A DNA stretch of 53,120 nt from a virus (IMGVR_UViG_3300037485_001022:1-53120), one strand, 5' to 3'; positions 5,983 through 51,025 are shown, numbered from the stretch's first letter. Program-made: numbers and translations. The notes: generated by a model not told the origin, from the letters alone.

Positions 5983-6483
5983 ATGTTTGACCTGAATCAA
6001 TGTAAACCTGACGATCAGTTAGTAAACCGTGAGGGTACTGTATGTACCTATGTAGGAAGGGATATTGAACATCAAACTACTGTGACCTATCCACACGCAG
6101 TAACCTATCCACACGCAGTAAGTGATAGAGCAGGCACCTTTTGTTTCACGGACAATGGCCGATTTATGCACAATGAGCATGAGAATAAATGGGACATTGT
6201 AGGATTCTATAAGAAGGAACCTGCAAAGCGTGTGCGCAAGCCTAAACCAGTAAACAAACTGCTTGGGCTATGTGAATATGTACAAGAGCAGATAGACGTA
6301 GAAATGTATCACACAGCCGGTTACCTCTATGGTAATTTTTATCTGGATGGAAAGCGGTTTATCTACGGCTATACCTTTAAAACAGCACCTTATGCTGCTA
6401 GTATAGGACTTGTAAACAGTACCCGGCAGATTGTTCACACGCTCAACAACTTCAAAGGCGCAGTAACTAAACTGCGCAAGTAG
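5983..6483 (+). CDS. paralogue family B member (MFDxxxCKxGDxL..[WF]DIVG)
   Basis: N-terminus shared with 7606 and 9593; AAGGAGGT RBS. Confidence 0.75.
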   Translation: MFDLNQCKPDDQLVNREGTVCTYVGRDIEHQTTVTYPHAVTYPHAVSDRAGTFCFTDNGRFMHNEHENKWDIVGFYKKEPAKRVRKPKPVNKLLGLCEYVQEQIDVEMYHTAGYLYGNFYLDGKRFIYGYTFKTAPYAASIGLVNSTRQIVHTLNNFKGAVTKLRK

Positions 6484-29442: not shown

Positions 29443-29536
29443 TGCCCCCGCGCCTCTACCTGCGCAGAGTAGAATACGTGTAATCCGGGTTACACCGCTA
29501 TCTACGTCCGGCAGATGTACGCGTAATTCGGGGGCA
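29443..29536 (+). ncRNA. candidate four-way-junction structured RNA
   Basis: TGCCCCCG/CGGGGGCA closing stem enclosing three hairpins. Confidence 0.6.
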
Positions 29537-36762: not shown

Positions 36763-37674
36763 ATGGAACTATATCGTAAATATCGGGAAACAACACTTGA
36801 CGGGATTCTAGGCAATCATAATAGCAAGGAAACCCTCAAGAGCATTATCGCTAAGCCTGTAGAATCACGTCCGCATACATTCTTGTTTGTAGGGCCAGCA
36901 GGGTGCGGTAAGACTACTCTAGCCTATATCATGGCTGCGGAGGTTAAGGTTCAGAACATCATTGAACAGAATAGTGCTGATTATCGTGGTATTGATTCTG
37001 TGCGTGATTTTGCAGCAGCACTACAGTATGTGCCACTACAGGGTTCACAGGCATACATCTTTGAAGAGGCCCACCGTCTCACGCAAGATGCACAGGAGGC
37101 ACTACTCAAACCAGTAGAGAACTGTCCCGAACATACTTACCTGTTCTTTACAACTACAGATGCCAGTAAGATCAATGCAGCACTTAAAACGCGCATGATT
37201 ATCATTCCGGTAGAACCACTAGATGAAACAACACTTGAATCACTGGTAAAGTCTGTTTGTGTTAAGGAACAGATTACAATTACTGATGCTGTCATTAAGC
37301 ATATTGCCAAGTCTGCTTACAATTCACCTAGACGCGCACTAACCATGCTTGAAAAGGTGATTGGGTTGTCGGAAGAGGAACAGCTTAAAGTAGCAGGTTA
37401 TTCTAATGACGTAGAAACGGTTGCTATTGACTTGTGCCGTCTACTAATTAAGAAGTCTGAATGGATGCCTATTGCTAATGTACTTTCAACTTTAAGTGTT
37501 GAACCAGAAGCAGTTAGGCGTGCGGTACTAGGGTATATGCGTGCCGTATTGCTTAAAAAGGATAGTGCTGCAGCCGTTGTAGTTGCCACACACTTTGAAC
37601 GTAACTACTATGATACTGGCAACGCAGGGCTTACGTTGTCTTGCTATCGCGCATGGGTTGACTTGAAAGGATAA
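36763..37674 (+). CDS. clamp loader, DnaX (gamma/tau)-like AAA+
   Basis: LYRKYR, GPAGCGKTT, IFEEAHRLT, AQEALLK, SPRRAL. Confidence 0.9.
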   Translation: MELYRKYRETTLDGILGNHNSKETLKSIIAKPVESRPHTFLFVGPAGCGKTTLAYIMAAEVKVQNIIEQNSADYRGIDSVRDFAAALQYVPLQGSQAYIFEEAHRLTQDAQEALLKPVENCPEHTYLFFTTTDASKINAALKTRMIIIPVEPLDETTLESLVKSVCVKEQITITDAVIKHIAKSAYNSPRRALTMLEKVIGLSEEEQLKVAGYSNDVETVAIDLCRLLIKKSEWMPIANVLSTLSVEPEAVRRAVLGYMRAVLLKKDSAAAVVVATHFERNYYDTGNAGLTLSCYRAWVDLKG

Positions 37675-38070
37675 GTATGAAAGACGAGAAAATTAAGTGT
37701 GATAACTGTAAGAAGGAAATTACCTTTCCTGCTATCATTGGACTAACAGCTACATTCAGAACCCGTACTGGCGTAAATAGGCCAATGGGATATACGCAAT
37801 TTGAGGTAGAGAATAGGGACTTCTGCGACCTGCGGTGTCTAGAAGTGTGGGTAGAACAAAAACATAAAGAAAGTTCGCGTGGTTACTCTAAAGTGGACCC
37901 TTGGGATAGGACGGATTTGTGATATGACGTTATTCCTAGCAATCTGGTTTACATTTGGTTTGTTTACTGTAGGACTGGCACTAAACCCCACAAAGAACAC
38001 GTTTGTAGAGTGTCTAGTGACTTTCCTATTTTGGCCTTTAATTTTGGGGGGATTTTTACAAGACCAATCT

Positions 38071-38121
38071 AACAAATAAAAGCGCAAGATCGACAATCGA
38101 AAATCGTTATCTTATGTAAGG
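38071..38121 (+). promoter_or_regulatory. 51-bp intergenic repeat, putative phage promoter
   Basis: 47/51 identical to 27994-28044. Confidence 0.75.
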
Positions 38122-38154
38122 TATTCACTTACGACACGAAAAAGGTTATAAATT

Positions 38155-38697
38155 ATGTCACTTGTATCAACAATGCCCACCATTTCAGAAATTGAATCAC
38201 TAAACAAGTATACGGAAGTAGCTGATCCTGACTTTATGGCACTTGAGGCAGAGATTAAGCGGGACTTGCAGATTTCTGGCGATATTGTGAATCAGTGTAT
38301 TAAGTTGCCGGAAGTGTCCGCTAAGTATGCTGCACTTATCGCACGTCTTGAACATCTTGAACTACGTGCTGATGAACGGGCTAAGGCAATCCGCAGCAAG
38401 ATCGTTATTGCCTTTGAGGATAACCCCAAGGCGTTCCTAGAAAACTGCCGTCACCGTAATATGCAGATTGTTGAATCGGTTTACCGTTCACATCCGCAGT
38501 ACAAGGCAGCAATTAGGGATCAACTTGCTATTGCTGCTATGCGTAAGATGGTAGCACAAACCACATACGCTATTGACCAGAAACGGTCTATGCTAGAATC
38601 ACTTATGAAGGCGCGTATGTCTGGTGTGGCTGACTTTAACATTCCTAATGCACCTAATACTGAACACGCAAACAAGGTACAAGAAGATAAACTGTAA
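38155..38697 (+). CDS. helical protein, possibly UvsY-like recombination mediator
   Basis: Helical, AIDQKRSMLESL; upstream of ssb and in a RecA-encoding genome (positional inference). Confidence 0.4.
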   Translation: MSLVSTMPTISEIESLNKYTEVADPDFMALEAEIKRDLQISGDIVNQCIKLPEVSAKYAALIARLEHLELRADERAKAIRSKIVIAFEDNPKAFLENCRHRNMQIVESVYRSHPQYKAAIRDQLAIAAMRKMVAQTTYAIDQKRSMLESLMKARMSGVADFNIPNAPNTEHANKVQEDKL

Positions 38698-38860
38698 GGG
38701 ATAAATATGACTAAACTACAAAAAGCTAAAATCAAGTATGCAGACGCTGCTCTACGTTATAATGAAGCGACACAAGTTACTAAGGAGGCTGAACAGGAGC
38801 TAGACTCTGCAGCCGCCGATCTGTTTGCAATACTTGAATCTACCGACGAACTGTAATCTC

Positions 38861-38888
38861 ACATAACAACTAAAACATAACAACTAAA
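38861..38888 (+). repeat. 14-bp tandem repeat (ACATAACAACTAAA x2) in G-free ssb leader
   Basis: Directly visible. Confidence 0.9.
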
Positions 38889-38907
38889 CACTAAAGGCTA
38901 AACTATT

Positions 38908-39789
38908 ATGACTATCATGGAAAGAATGCGTGCATCAGCTAAGACACAGATGGAAGGTGGCGGTGGCAATCAGTTTAACAAGGCGTGGAAAGCTAAGAAG
39001 GGAACACCGAATCTAAAGATTGTACTGACACCACCTGACGGGCAGCGTACAAATATCCGCATTGTGCCGTATGTTGTAACGAATCCCCGTAATAATCCCG
39101 ATTGTGAAGAGATTGGTTCACAGTGGTACAAGCGGCGTTATTGGGCGCACCGTATCGGCCCTACTGGTCAGGAAGTCCGTGTTCCTTGTCTTATGCGTAA
39201 CTTTGGTAAGCCTTGCCCTGCTTGTAGCCTTGTCGCTAAACTGAAAGCGGAAGGTGTTGACAAGAAGGTTTATGAGAACCTCTGGGCTAGGGAGCGTGAG
39301 TTGTTTAATGTTTACGACCACAATGACAAGACACTCAAACTGATGGATGTCAGTACGCATCTGTTTGGTAAGAAGTTGCTCCAAGAGGCTAACGATCCAG
39401 AAAACATTAAGGAAGGGTCTGAGAACTTCGTCAACCCGTGTGCTGGTGGTGTGATGCTATCATGCCGGTTTGATGCAGGTACGTTTGCCAAGAGCGTGCA
39501 GCTTGGTTCAGTGAAGTTTGTTAAGGCTAATGCTATTCCTAAAGAAATTATGGATAAGGCGGAAGACCTTGACGCTATCCTTATTGAACTTAGTGCGGAA
39601 GAGATTGAGCGCATTATGGATGGGGCTATCACCACAAAGGCAGAGGATACAGTGTCACCTGACTTTGATGCACCACCTGTAACTGCAACGACACCTCCTG
39701 CTAAGACGGCAGTTGTGCCAAAGGCAACACCATCCGTTGAACCAGAGGGTGCAGTTGCAAATGCCCATGCTGATGACCTAGACTTCTAA
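38908..39789 (+). CDS. gp32-like single-stranded DNA-binding protein
   Basis: RIVP, H..C..CPAC zinc ligands, low-complexity linker, acidic tail DDLDF. Confidence 0.8.
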   Translation: MTIMERMRASAKTQMEGGGGNQFNKAWKAKKGTPNLKIVLTPPDGQRTNIRIVPYVVTNPRNNPDCEEIGSQWYKRRYWAHRIGPTGQEVRVPCLMRNFGKPCPACSLVAKLKAEGVDKKVYENLWARERELFNVYDHNDKTLKLMDVSTHLFGKKLLQEANDPENIKEGSENFVNPCAGGVMLSCRFDAGTFAKSVQLGSVKFVKANAIPKEIMDKAEDLDAILIELSAEEIERIMDGAITTKAEDTVSPDFDAPPVTATTPPAKTAVVPKATPSVEPEGAVANAHADDLDF

Positions 39790-39796
39790 CATCTCC

Positions 39797-39846
39797 GGTG
39801 CAACCGTATGGTTCCTCCCCCACCTCCTTCCCCATACGGTTGCACC
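39797..39846. other. perfect 15-bp hairpin with C-rich anti-Shine-Dalgarno loop
   Basis: GGTGCAACCGTATGG / CCATACGGTTGCACC; loop TTCCTCCCCCACCTCCTTCC. Confidence 0.85.
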
Positions 39847-40095
39847 CTCTTACTCTTGAAAGATTTTAATGACTAAAAACACTAAGACTGGTTGGGTTTC
39901 AGGTTGGCATCGTCTAAGTTCTACGAATAAGCGTGTACGTTGTATTAAGTTTTATGGTGCGGATAAGCAGTTAGAAATTGCTATCTACCGTAATACCGAT
40001 ATGGATGTTACCGTATGCGTCTATCATGGGCAGACATTGTTTAGCCTTAATATGTCGGTAGACGATATGTTTAACCTTGTATGCGTAGGGAGTTA

Positions 40096-41292
40096 ATGAG
40101 TACACTTAATACACAAGTAACAGCCGCTTATATGAAGTGTGGTAGTATCCGCAAGGTTGCTAAGCAGTTTGGTCTTAGTCGGTTTGCGGTAGACCGTATT
40201 GTTAGTTGCCGTGACACCTTTGTGGATATTCCTGTAACGGGTAAGACAACACCTGTAACGACTTCACCTATTATTCCTGTCACTGGTAACTACCGTAGGC
40301 AGTACGAAGCGGAAAAGGAACTGCGAACTGGTATTCAGGCAGCGTTTGAAGAGTACAAGGCTAACCATGAGTTCATTTCAGTACTTGAAACCCAGTTTAC
40401 TGCCCCTTCTATTATTGAACCAACAACTGCACACTCCAAGTCTGAATCACTGGCTGCAATGTTCTATGCAGACTGGCACGCATACGAGCAGGTACGTCCG
40501 CAGGAAGTCAATGGTCTCAATGCCTACAATCCTGTTATTTGCCGTGACAGTATAGAAACTGCTACTAAGGCATTTGTTAAGTTGACTAATGAGAGGCGCA
40601 CACTTACTACAATTAATGTAGCAATGGTGAACTTCTTAGGCGACCTAATGAGTGGGCATCTATGGCCTGATCAGATTGAAGGTAATGCAGGTTCCCCCCT
40701 AGAAGAAGCCTTGTTTGTTACTGACTTGATTATCTCTAGTCTTGACTACATTCTGAAATACGGTGAGTTTAGTAAGGTTTATGTCAATTCAGTAGACGGT
40801 AATCATAGCCGTATTACAGGTAAAGAAAAGCGGAAATCTAACCGTGCTAAGCATAGTCTTGAATGGCTGATTTTCAAGTATGTAGAACGGTACTATAAAC
40901 ACCTTGGGGAAACACGGCTAGTCTTTAACATCTCCGAAAGTATCCATAGCTACATTGACCTTGCGTTTGGCATGGATAAGAGGCATCCTAATGGCCTTAC
41001 ATGGCGGTTGACGCATGGTGATGAAGGTATCAGGTACAAAGGCGGTGTAGGGGGTATTGCGGTTCCTGCTAATCGGCAAATCAAAATCTGGAATGAAGCT
41101 AGACATGCCGATATGACCGCGTTTGGGCACTTGCATACATCCGAGTACCTAAAGCGTTATCTGGCAGTTGGTTCTACACTAGGTATGAGTCCTAACGGGC
41201 TTAACCATGAGTTTGAACCACCACAACAGGCAATGCTTACGGTTGAGAAAACTAAGGGCATTACAGCGTATTACCCTATCTTTGTGCGATAA
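40096..41292 (+). CDS. calcineurin-like metallophosphoesterase with N-terminal HTH-like segment
   Basis: ADWH, GDL, GNH, THG, GHLH; N-terminal GSIRKVAKQFGLSR. Confidence 0.82.
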   Translation: MSTLNTQVTAAYMKCGSIRKVAKQFGLSRFAVDRIVSCRDTFVDIPVTGKTTPVTTSPIIPVTGNYRRQYEAEKELRTGIQAAFEEYKANHEFISVLETQFTAPSIIEPTTAHSKSESLAAMFYADWHAYEQVRPQEVNGLNAYNPVICRDSIETATKAFVKLTNERRTLTTINVAMVNFLGDLMSGHLWPDQIEGNAGSPLEEALFVTDLIISSLDYILKYGEFSKVYVNSVDGNHSRITGKEKRKSNRAKHSLEWLIFKYVERYYKHLGETRLVFNISESIHSYIDLAFGMDKRHPNGLTWRLTHGDEGIRYKGGVGGIAVPANRQIKIWNEARHADMTAFGHLHTSEYLKRYLAVGSTLGMSPNGLNHEFEPPQQAMLTVEKTKGITAYYPIFVR

Positions 41293-41309
41293 TAGTGAGG
41301 GGATAGATT

Positions 41310-41370
41310 GGGGCTGGTATTCCCTTTGCTGATACAGGTTGCCTAGCTGTTCTAAGGTAGGCGCAGCCCC
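41310..41370 (+). ncRNA. candidate small three-way-junction RNA
   Basis: GGGGCTG/CAGCCCC closing stem with two internal hairpins. Confidence 0.4.
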
Positions 41371-41379
41371 TTTTATTAT

Positions 41380-41452
41380 TGCGGGATATTGTAATGGCAG
41401 CATGACTGGCTTATAACCAGAGTCAGTGAAGGTTCAATTCCTTCCCCCCGCA
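41380..41452 (+). tRNA. atypical or degenerate tRNA with TAT anticodon (Ile-UAU)
   Basis: TGCGGG/CCCGCA acceptor, CTGG-CTTATAA-CCAG anticodon arm, GAAGG-TTCAATT-CCTTC T arm; imperfect acceptor base and no CCA. Confidence 0.62.
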
Positions 41453-41501
41453 TAATCCATGTTTCGGTTAAGATTAGTAATGATAACATGTAGGAGATAG
41501 T

Positions 41502-41825
41502 ATGAGACAAGTAAGAATGTCGGTGTTTGAAACCAATAGCAGTTCTACACATAGTTTGACTATTGTAACCGCAGAAGAGTACGCTAAGTTTAAGGCAGGT
41601 ACGTTAGCATACAATCGGGGTAGTAAAGAACTTGTAGAACTTACTAAACCTGCTACTGTAGTTGAGGATGCGGATGCGGATGACGATGATGATGACGATG
41701 ATGAAGTCCAATCGTATAAACAGTATAATAACGGGGATGATTGCCTAGAAACCTTTGAACAGTCATTCACTACACCTTCCGGTGATAAGATGGTCGCATT
41801 TGGCAAGTACGGAAACGATTGGTAA
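41502..41825 (+). CDS. FETNSSSTHS-motif phage protein, acidic
   Basis: MRQVRMSVFETNSSSTHS N-terminus, poly-Asp tract, C-terminal VAFGKYG. Confidence 0.8.
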   Translation: MRQVRMSVFETNSSSTHSLTIVTAEEYAKFKAGTLAYNRGSKELVELTKPATVVEDADADDDDDDDDEVQSYKQYNNGDDCLETFEQSFTTPSGDKMVAFGKYGNDW

Positions 41826-50990: not shown

Positions 50991-51025
50991 AAAGCCCCTT
51001 ACAGTACTTCACTGTAAGGGGCTTT
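50991..51025. terminator. bidirectional intrinsic terminator between convergent blocks
   Basis: AAAGCCCCTTACAGT-acttc-ACTGTAAGGGGCTTT with A-rich and T-rich flanks. Confidence 0.88.

Follow-up and report, generated by a model that had tools for sequence, protein, structure and literature searches.

A perfect hairpin with a large, C-rich loop behind the predicted gp32-type ssb gene of an uncultured freshwater phage may act as a leaky terminator

In an uncultured freshwater phage, the stop codon of a gene for a predicted gp32-type single-strand DNA-binding protein (SSB) is followed after 7 nt by a perfect 15-bp hairpin that holds open a large, G-free and C-rich loop. This hairpin is real, unusual and beyond chance. 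Our preferred reading, to which we give a probability of roughly one half, is that it serves as a leaky terminator and 3'-end protector of the ssb message and sets ssb output above that of the downstream genes. We infer termination, protection and leakiness from the structure of the element, its position, its retention in near relatives and the hairpins found at the same place in distant loci. The loop also resembles the 3' tail of 16S rRNA, and a regulatory role for this likeness has to be weighed against the terminator, together with roles as a protein-binding site and as DNA.

The window, by which we mean the whole stretch of DNA analysed (53,120 nt; IMG/VR virus record IMGVR_UViG_3300037485_001022:1-53120, estimated to be 62% complete), carries nearly all of its genes on the + strand, and these cover early and replication functions. 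Genes could be read for helicases, RtcB, a methyltransferase, a sliding-clamp-like factor, a family-A DNA polymerase, a clamp loader, a UvsX-like recombinase, and SbcC- and Mre11-like nucleases. Neither blastn with 38900-40100 nor tblastn with the SSB returned any match in a search for cultured relatives among 50,697 GenBank phage records. The DNA polymerase is only 21-23% identical to those of cultured phages, and therefore neither a host nor an annotated relative was found. The features around the hairpin are as follows.

38857..38907, + strand: 5' leader of ssb, rich in A and C, with 2 G in its last 50 nt and cataacaactaaa twice, ending in a weak Shine-Dalgarno (SD) site, AAAGG
38908..39789, + strand: ssb, for a predicted gp32-type SSB of 293 aa with an acidic tail ending in DDLDF (PHROG, homologue alignment, fold search); stop codon TAA at 39787-39789
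39790..39796, + strand: 7-nt spacer from stop to stem, CATCTCC (sequence)
39797..39811, + strand: 5' arm of the hairpin, GGTGCAACCGTATGG, 15 nt, 9 of them G or C (sequence, inverted-repeat search, fold)
39812..39831, + strand: loop, TTCCTCCCCCACCTCCTTCC, 20 nt, G-free pyrimidine, holding TTCCTCC and CACCTCCTT (sequence)
39832..39846, + strand: 3' arm of the hairpin, CCATACGGTTGCACC (sequence, inverted-repeat search, fold)
39847..39858, + strand: pyrimidine tail, CTCTTACTCTTG, 6 T in 12 nt, the stem being followed by CTCTTACTCTTGAAAG (sequence)
39859..40096, + strand: weak ribosome-binding site (RBS; GAAAGA) and a 75-aa gene of unknown function, whose ATG at 39869 lies 22 nt past the stem

The preliminary description of this DNA had called the upstream gene ssb, a name that holds at fold level. 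Its product matches PHROG 1192 (SSB) weakly (E = 1.1e-6), a Pfam search with the product gave no match, and a PDB sequence search with a profile of 17 SSB homologues gave nothing. An AlphaFold model built on the homologue alignment (pLDDT 75.9) has the cores of T4 and RB69 gp32 as its six best PDB matches (E = 3.6e-8 to 1e-4), with TM-scores by target length of 0.55-0.61 against gp32 structures and 1gpc, 2a1k and 8gme at the top. Residues H81, C94, C103 and C106 are invariant in the 17 homologues, and we take them to correspond to the His/Cys3 zinc site of T4 gp32; the acidic tail ends in D..F, with D290 and F293 equally invariant. The protein thus has both a His/Cys3 zinc-site pattern and an acidic C-terminal tail, and at the level of the modelled fold the gene at 38908-39789 is a gp32-type ssb.

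The window contains 22 inverted pairs within 60 nt, and only two of these have perfect 15-nt arms: the ssb hairpin, and 50991-51025, a classical terminator between convergent genes. The RNA hairpin has a folding energy of -27.8 kcal/mol (z = -6.4), which 0 of 200 shuffles equalled. Its 15 perfect pairs, 9 of them G-C, make the stable kind of stem that intrinsic terminators have. In the fold of the 1012-nt ssb message, the pairs of the stem have probabilities of 0.98-1.00 and all bases of the loop are unpaired (probability 1.00). The perfect 15-bp stem, its start 7 nt after the stop and the 20-nt loop (39797-39811 / 39832-39846) are just as first described, and the remark that there is no real U-tract is accurate for the window, with 6 T in the first 12 nt. 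A competing helix between 39744-39757 and 39837-39850 (14 pairs, of which 3 are G-U) was considered and set aside: it has negligible weight in the ensemble, and its coding-side partner, 39744-39757, is substituted at many positions in relatives.

The stretch is present, whole or in part, in 19 listed runs; these come from 11 studies and bear the label sediment, lake-water or plain 'metagenome', and 0 of the 19 is on record as RNA. Near relatives were compared as contigs of four runs (X2, X4, X8 and X10) from four studies, all of which cover the hairpin at least in part. The X8 contig covers all 701 nt and has three indels, none of them within the hairpin, whose length is accordingly unchanged there. 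The X4 alignment breaks inside the loop, leaving the loose ends GCATCTCCGGTGCAGCCGTATGGTTCATTT, ATTTCATACCTCCTTCCCC and CCGTATGGTTCATTTCAT. In this allele an A/U-rich block replaces 7 bases of the loop's 5' half, the ACCTCCTTCC half is unchanged and the loop is still 20 nt long; the 5' arm has one A-to-G change (GGTGCAGCC). The two contigs of X2 have a 1-nt insertion or a 1-nt deletion in the C-run, and the loop measures 19-21 nt in all near relatives compared. Conservation had been proposed as a check on the loop, and among near relatives the outcome is divided: the stem and the ACCTCCTTCC half are kept, whereas the other 7 loop nt have been exchanged or contain indels. Positions 39847 and 39855 read T, not C, in X4 (18/18 depth), X8 (17.9/17.9), X10 (5.54/5.54) and one of the two X2 contigs, and the tail is therefore more U-rich in these four runs, with 8 T in 12. 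In IMG/VR, 0 stretches contain the exact loop 20-mer and 0 match a pattern that frees its 7 variable bases.

Distant loci were gathered from IMG/VR and metagenome collections with the SSB and two homologue alignments; a search of GTDB genome contigs with the SSB alignment yielded none that was confirmed. Hairpins were counted in those 48 distinct loci where the homologous gene is followed by at least 100 nt of sequence, as uninterrupted stems of at least 9 bp starting within 40 nt of the stop, and 18 of the 48 have one. Loops of at least 12 nt occur on 8 of these 18, and 2 of the 8 (L036; L037, which is the same as L056) hold CCTCC or CTCCT. With 2 loci in 48, the anti-SD loop is therefore recurrent without being characteristic of the family. 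Given a background density of 0.0011 per nt, the 246 nt of large loops should contain about 0.27 motifs, against 2 loops of 8 observed. Over the first 100 nt after the gene, the + strand of 40 loci has 15 motifs in 4000 nt, compared with 240 in 221,919 nt elsewhere.

The L037 motif lies in a 16-nt open inner loop, CCCUCCUCACUCCCCC, and is followed by the tail CTTTAC. The L036 motif, CACCUCCUCU, sits at the junction of stem and loop and is partly paired in a small inner helix of the predicted fold; its tail is TCTTTAC. The window and L036 share the 7-nt distance from stop to stem, the 8-mer CACCTCCT and a similar tail (CTCTTACT... vs TCTTTACT...GAAAG), while their stems are wholly different and their SSBs about 32% identical. 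The window, L036 and L037 thus each have a 16S-tail-like loop and a CTTTAC-like tail behind homologous gp32-like genes, on stems that are unrelated to one another. Among the relatives of the L036 and L037 SSBs, L059 (the L039 contig) has an ordinary small-loop hairpin and L060 runs off the end of its contig; L059 is the sole comparator with downstream DNA, too few for a covariation test.

The closest relatives among the fetched loci (L002, L052, L049, L050 and L053) have no large-loop element. Those with SSB identities of 47-50%, L002 and L052, have an interrupted ordinary hairpin, for which reason the strict scan missed them, followed by the T-run ATTCTCTTTTGTTTTT or ATTCTCTTTTATTTTT. Those with identities of 53-57%, L049, L050 and L053, have a conserved spacer of about 220 nt with no hairpin next to the stop. 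This spacer (L049:2408-2627, L050:3844-4076, L053:563-791) lies between ssb and a homologue of the small GWV.GW gene, and it holds two hairpins, TTTAGTCTG...CAGACTAAA and GGGGT...ACCCC followed by TTTGCAG. A different arrangement is present in 12 of 12 loci of a subfamily of SSB-like proteins with basic C-terminal tails (L004, L006, L008, L009, L010, L012, L014, L017, L019, L029, L038 and L199). Here the spacer of 75-115 nt behind the stop has three parts in a fixed order: first a hairpin that varies, then an unchanging (C/T)TGGTT(A/G)GG, and last a pair of helices that interleave, after which comes the RBS of the next gene. The helices (A of 5-6 bp, B of 5-8 bp), brought out by an exact-complement search, would form an H-type pseudoknot, and compensatory changes are numerous in both. 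T4 gene 32 has a pseudoknot operator, and by analogy the spacer of this subfamily is a candidate new conserved RNA, possibly an operator of that kind.

How might the hairpin behind ssb work? In the preferred reading, RNA polymerase transcribing the replication module would pause on the pyrimidine- and U-rich tail while the 15-bp stem forms, and a fraction of the transcripts would end there without the help of a factor. The stem would bar 3'-to-5' exonucleases, so that transcripts ended or trimmed at it would be protected and the product of ssb, presumably needed in stoichiometric amounts, would outnumber those of the small gene and of the Mre11-like exonuclease gene behind it. Such a site would have to be leaky, because the next two genes have no promoter room and a consensus scan of the + strand found no promoter-like site in 37611-41527; the gap of just 22 nt to the next ATG agrees with this. 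The stop of the 75-aa gene overlaps the probable ATG (40096) of the exonuclease gene, and both genes therefore need read-through of the hairpin. As the stem begins only 7 nt past the stop, a ribosome that has reached the end of ssb would sit on the first bases of the stem and could influence the frequency with which the hairpin folds. The 20-nt, G-free loop would be a tolerated and unstructured part of a large-loop style of terminator that is found elsewhere in the phage family.

Several observations argue for this leaky terminator and 3' protector. The strong stem directly behind the stop of a gp32-type ssb, presumably a highly expressed gene, forms with a probability of about 1 in the message, hairpins follow the homologous gene in the 18 of 48 distinct loci, and the tail is the more U-rich in the contigs of four other runs. 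Large, G-poor loops that lack the anti-SD motif are carried by post-gene hairpins of relatives (a 22-nt, A-rich loop in the L020 group and a 13-nt loop in L048). At L021:6217-6267 a 13-bp stem with a 25-nt, G-poor loop, which contains ACCUCCC and UUCUCC, is followed by a T-run; this terminator lies about 2 kb downstream of an ssb-like gene and before an SbcC-like gene. T4 gene 32 is followed by a strong terminator that is used as a cloning cassette, and, like that terminator and protective 3' stem-loops, the present element places a strong G/C stem with a pyrimidine- or U-rich tail right after the stop of a gp32-type ssb. It further resembles intrinsic terminators in that hairpins, some of them with clear T-runs, occur at this position in relatives. 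It differs from them in its need to be leaky, in the poor U-tract of the window (6 T in 12) and in its 20-nt loop, which is far beyond the usual 3-8 nt; the terminator consensus scan, limited to loops of 3-8 nt, made no call at the ssb hairpin. A loop of this size costs stability, yet the near relatives compared keep it at 19-21 nt.

Two further elements of the window touch on this subject. Downstream (3') of the sliding-clamp-like gene, at 29443-29536 and within a 235-nt spacer, an 8-bp G/C stem (TGCCCCCG / CGGGGGCA) has 78 nt between its arms and CTTTATCTTTGA behind it, a tail that closely resembles the one after the ssb hairpin. This element may be a second large-loop terminator or a structured RNA; the spacer after the clamp gene shows no homology to the post-ssb spacer of L049, L050 and L053. 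At 41302-41375, a GGGGCTG...CAGCCCC stem around some 50 nt, followed by TTTTATTATT, lies upstream of a second tRNA (41381-41452), which Rfam found with 36.8 bits and ARAGORN did not report. At the gathering threshold, Rfam recognized two tRNAs only in the window, and with E-values up to 10 on 39600-40000 it returned one chance-level match, NEAT1_2 (13.9 bits).

The composition of the loop is where the terminator explains least. The + strand is poor in C (9926 C in 53120, or 18.7%), and the loop is its most C-rich 20-mer: the maximum is 15 C in 20, and all seven 20-mers with at least 13 C overlap the loop. So many C on such a strand would not be expected from drift. The preliminary description held that the loop carries the 16S anti-SD stretch and a second TTCCTCC, and an exact 9-nt match to the 3' end of E. 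coli rrsH, which reads ...GGATCACCTCCTTA, bears this out: the 9-mer CACCTCCTT is the end of 16S rRNA, and its only occurrence in the window is in the ssb loop. CCUCC is present twice in the loop, exposed and unpaired, as is typical of CU-rich loops. When the loop was shuffled 20000 times, 62.9% of the shuffles contained CCTCC and 0.56% matched the core of the 16S tail over at least 9 nt. Because so many shuffles keep CCTCC, the likeness to the 16S tail stems largely from C/U composition, which favours the terminator, while the exact 9-mer counts against it. So do the ACCTCCTTCC half, kept where the other 7 bases of the loop are replaced, and the CCUCC-type large loops with CTTTAC-like tails that L036 and L037 carry after the same gene.

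The likeness was also followed beyond the loop. The stem recalls helix 45 of 16S rRNA (AACCGTATGG vs E. coli AACCGTAGGG, CGGTTG), as does the tail the sequence that corresponds to it (CACCCTCTTA vs CACCTCCTTA), in an order colinear with the 16S end; we rejected this as probably due to chance, with 46 and 298 of 2000 shuffles scoring as well, and it is absent from the stems of L036 and L037. How common mimics of the 16S tail are was gauged with the 14-mer GATCACCTCCTTTC, present in at least 113 stretches of IMG/VR. Among these matches, 0 of the 80 examined stood in a 16S context, and many, judged by eye and uncounted, are the reverse complement of a strong RBS beside a start codon; the scan is therefore uninformative on hairpin loops. 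It brought up one 15-bp, terminator-like hairpin with the motif at the junction of stem and loop (L105:5586-5639), behind a gene that is not ssb but encodes a 90-aa protein of unknown function.

A second reading, which we regard as unlikely but still the first of the alternatives to be weighed, is that the hairpin ends the ssb message and that its open loop is, in addition, an anti-SD module that pairs with purine-rich RBSs and lowers their translation. The module would be displayed on the abundant ssb mRNA or on a 3' fragment of it and would make loop-to-linear contacts with host or phage mRNAs, in trans or within the same polycistronic RNA. Such a role is possible because the terminator leaves the retention of a costly, G-free and C-rich loop unexplained. 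The loop is fully unpaired in the ensemble, its copy of the 16S tail over 9 nt is rare among composition-matched shuffles, and the X4 allele preserves ACCTCCTTCC next to a block of 7 other bases (ATTTCATACCTCCTTCCCC, CCGTATGGTTCATTTCAT). The motif is in excess in large post-ssb loops, and CACCTCCT recurs at the same spacing and before a similar tail in L036, on another stem and behind a distant SSB. However, the C-rich 5' half is lost in the same X4 allele, CCTCC is nearly automatic at the composition of the loop, the L036 motif is partly buried in its predicted inner helix, and 46 of the 48 distant loci have no such loop. A copy of the 16S tail would presumably also compete with the cell's own ribosomes for every SD site.

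The phage clearly uses SD sites, as seen in a listing of its start regions, and the same listing agrees with the preliminary description that AAGGAATAACTATG-type starts are recurrent. Many replication genes share a stereotyped initiation region, AAGGA(A/T)TAA(C/T)TATG (starts 15103, 28433, 33664, 35950, 36485, 36763, 37677 and 42717), which is present also in L049, L050 and L053 and is unlike the GGAGG-type sites that genes in the first 16 kb have. The claimed complementarity of the loop to early-gene RBSs (AAGGAGGT) at 5983, 14561 and 15853 was confirmed over 8 bp, ACCUCCUU pairing perfectly with the AAGGAGGU RBSs at these positions, and this favours an anti-SD module. What is missing is specificity. 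When duplexes with the loop were computed along the + strand (17,697 windows; mean -5.9, sd 4.1 kcal/mol), no outlier or preferred phage target emerged: the best duplex, with a G-run RBS near 661-682, reaches -21.7 kcal/mol, sites other than RBSs follow at -21.2 and -20.9, and the RBSs at 5983, 14561 and 15853 are outside the best 25 duplex windows. The ssb hairpin is single, the window having no other hairpin that combines a strong stem with a CCTCC loop. The further proposal of a 3'-UTR-derived RNA that silences strong-SD mRNAs at the onset of replication is left unsupported by the lack of an outlier target and by the presence of a CCUCC-type large loop in just 2 of 48 distant loci.

Regulatory RNAs of bacteria provide some precedent, the CU-rich loops of LhrC, of the RNAIII type and of cuckoo/CcsR RNAs acting in this manner. 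The LhrC sRNAs of Listeria monocytogenes have a CU-rich motif (CUCCC / UCCC) in the loop of a terminator hairpin, which pairs with a G-rich SD region, as does the CUCCC terminator loop with the SD region of lapB (PMC4132741). The ssb hairpin likewise has a CU-rich motif in its loop, but the phage has just one such hairpin and it closes an mRNA, whereas LhrC is a free-standing, multicopy sRNA with three sites and proven targets (PMC4132741). The cuckoo or CcsR RNAs (RSs0680, ar14) of Alphaproteobacteria are cellular and are composed of 2-4 adjacent hairpin modules (PMC4615179), unlike the one phage module after ssb, which matches no Rfam family. In the icaR mRNA of Staphylococcus aureus, a UCCCCUG motif in the 3'-UTR pairs with the SD site of the same message (PMC3868564). 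The phage element resembles it in having a C-rich, anti-SD-like motif in the 3' untranslated part of an mRNA and differs in the pairing with its own 5' end: because the ssb SD site, AAAGG, forms only about 4 pairs with the loop, self-repression in the style of icaR is unsupported. Our full-text search of the literature yielded no report of a phage ssb message that ends in an anti-SD loop. An anti-SD role is thus possible and recurs in few lineages, but it is too unspecific and too little conserved to count as supported.

The three 16S-tail-like loops on unrelated stems suggest a bolder and somewhat less likely form of the same idea, namely a recurrent and possibly convergent phage device. The end stem of an abundant ssb message would display a copy of the 16S tail, which would mask SD sites of the host or of early phage genes once replication starts, or act as a decoy for a factor that recognizes or cuts the 16S tail. 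We hold this to be a long shot worth stating.

More doubtful is a role of the G-free loop as a landing site for a protein, be it Rho (on C-rich, G-poor and rut-like RNA just behind a stop codon), ribosomal S1 (through a standby site or enhancer that serves the gene with a weak SD site 38-57 nt downstream) or the phage's own gp32-type SSB. The loop, with 0 G, 15 C in 20 nt at its densest and a stem to hold it open, would suit any of these, and the SD site of the next gene is merely GAAAGA. T4 gp32 binds the unstructured leader RNA of its own message. The ssb leader is as G-poor as the loop in the window and in L049 and L050, where it is of the same CTAA/ACAA type with a different sequence (G fraction 0.04), and both ends of the message therefore offer unstructured RNA to a gp32-type protein; the leaders of L002, L052, L036, L037, L030 and L020 have no such character (G fraction 0.18-0.26). 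The almost G-free leader may serve as an enhancer without structure, or as a region that the SSB binds to regulate its own synthesis in the manner of gp32. Against a landing site in the loop stand its sequence and its size. Rut sites are usually ascribed 60-80 nt of C-rich, G-poor and unstructured RNA, far more than the 20 nt that are C-rich here between flanks that are paired or ordinary in composition; the near-relative allele is without C-richness in half of the loop; and we know of no preference of Rho, S1 or SSB for the loop sequence.

Finally, it is very improbable that the element acts as DNA, as a cruciform or single-stranded hairpin in replication or recombination, or through a GGA-rich loop on the minus strand (GGAAGGAGGTGGGGGAGGAA) that decoys CsrA or ribosomes: a perfect inverted repeat does lie within the replication module, and the minus-strand RNA folds equally well (-32.4 kcal/mol, z = -4.3) with several GGA in its loop, but all gene-like open reading frames of at least 90 aa between 929 and 50641 are on the + strand, the minus-strand RNA has no U-tail after its stem, and minus-strand promoter-like matches (31, with 45.5 expected from shuffles) are not in excess. 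The A-to-G change in the 5' arm of X4 (GGTGCAGCC) would give a G-U pair in the + RNA and a C-A mismatch in the minus RNA if its partner (39840) is unchanged, which is a hint only. The minus-strand decoy for CsrA or ribosomes put forward in the preliminary description accordingly finds no support in the direction of the neighbouring genes or in the sequence after the stem.

The element is small, and its loop, stem and tail can be mutated separately. If the loop is a by-product, the hairpin would stand for ordinary differential expression in a phage replication operon, achieved with a terminator whose loop is unusually large. If the loop is used, the most abundant message of the replication phase would be coupled to a general brake on SD-led translation, or to a decoy of the 16S tail; such a device, undescribed for phages according to the full-text search, would be a cheap, RNA-only means of takeover.
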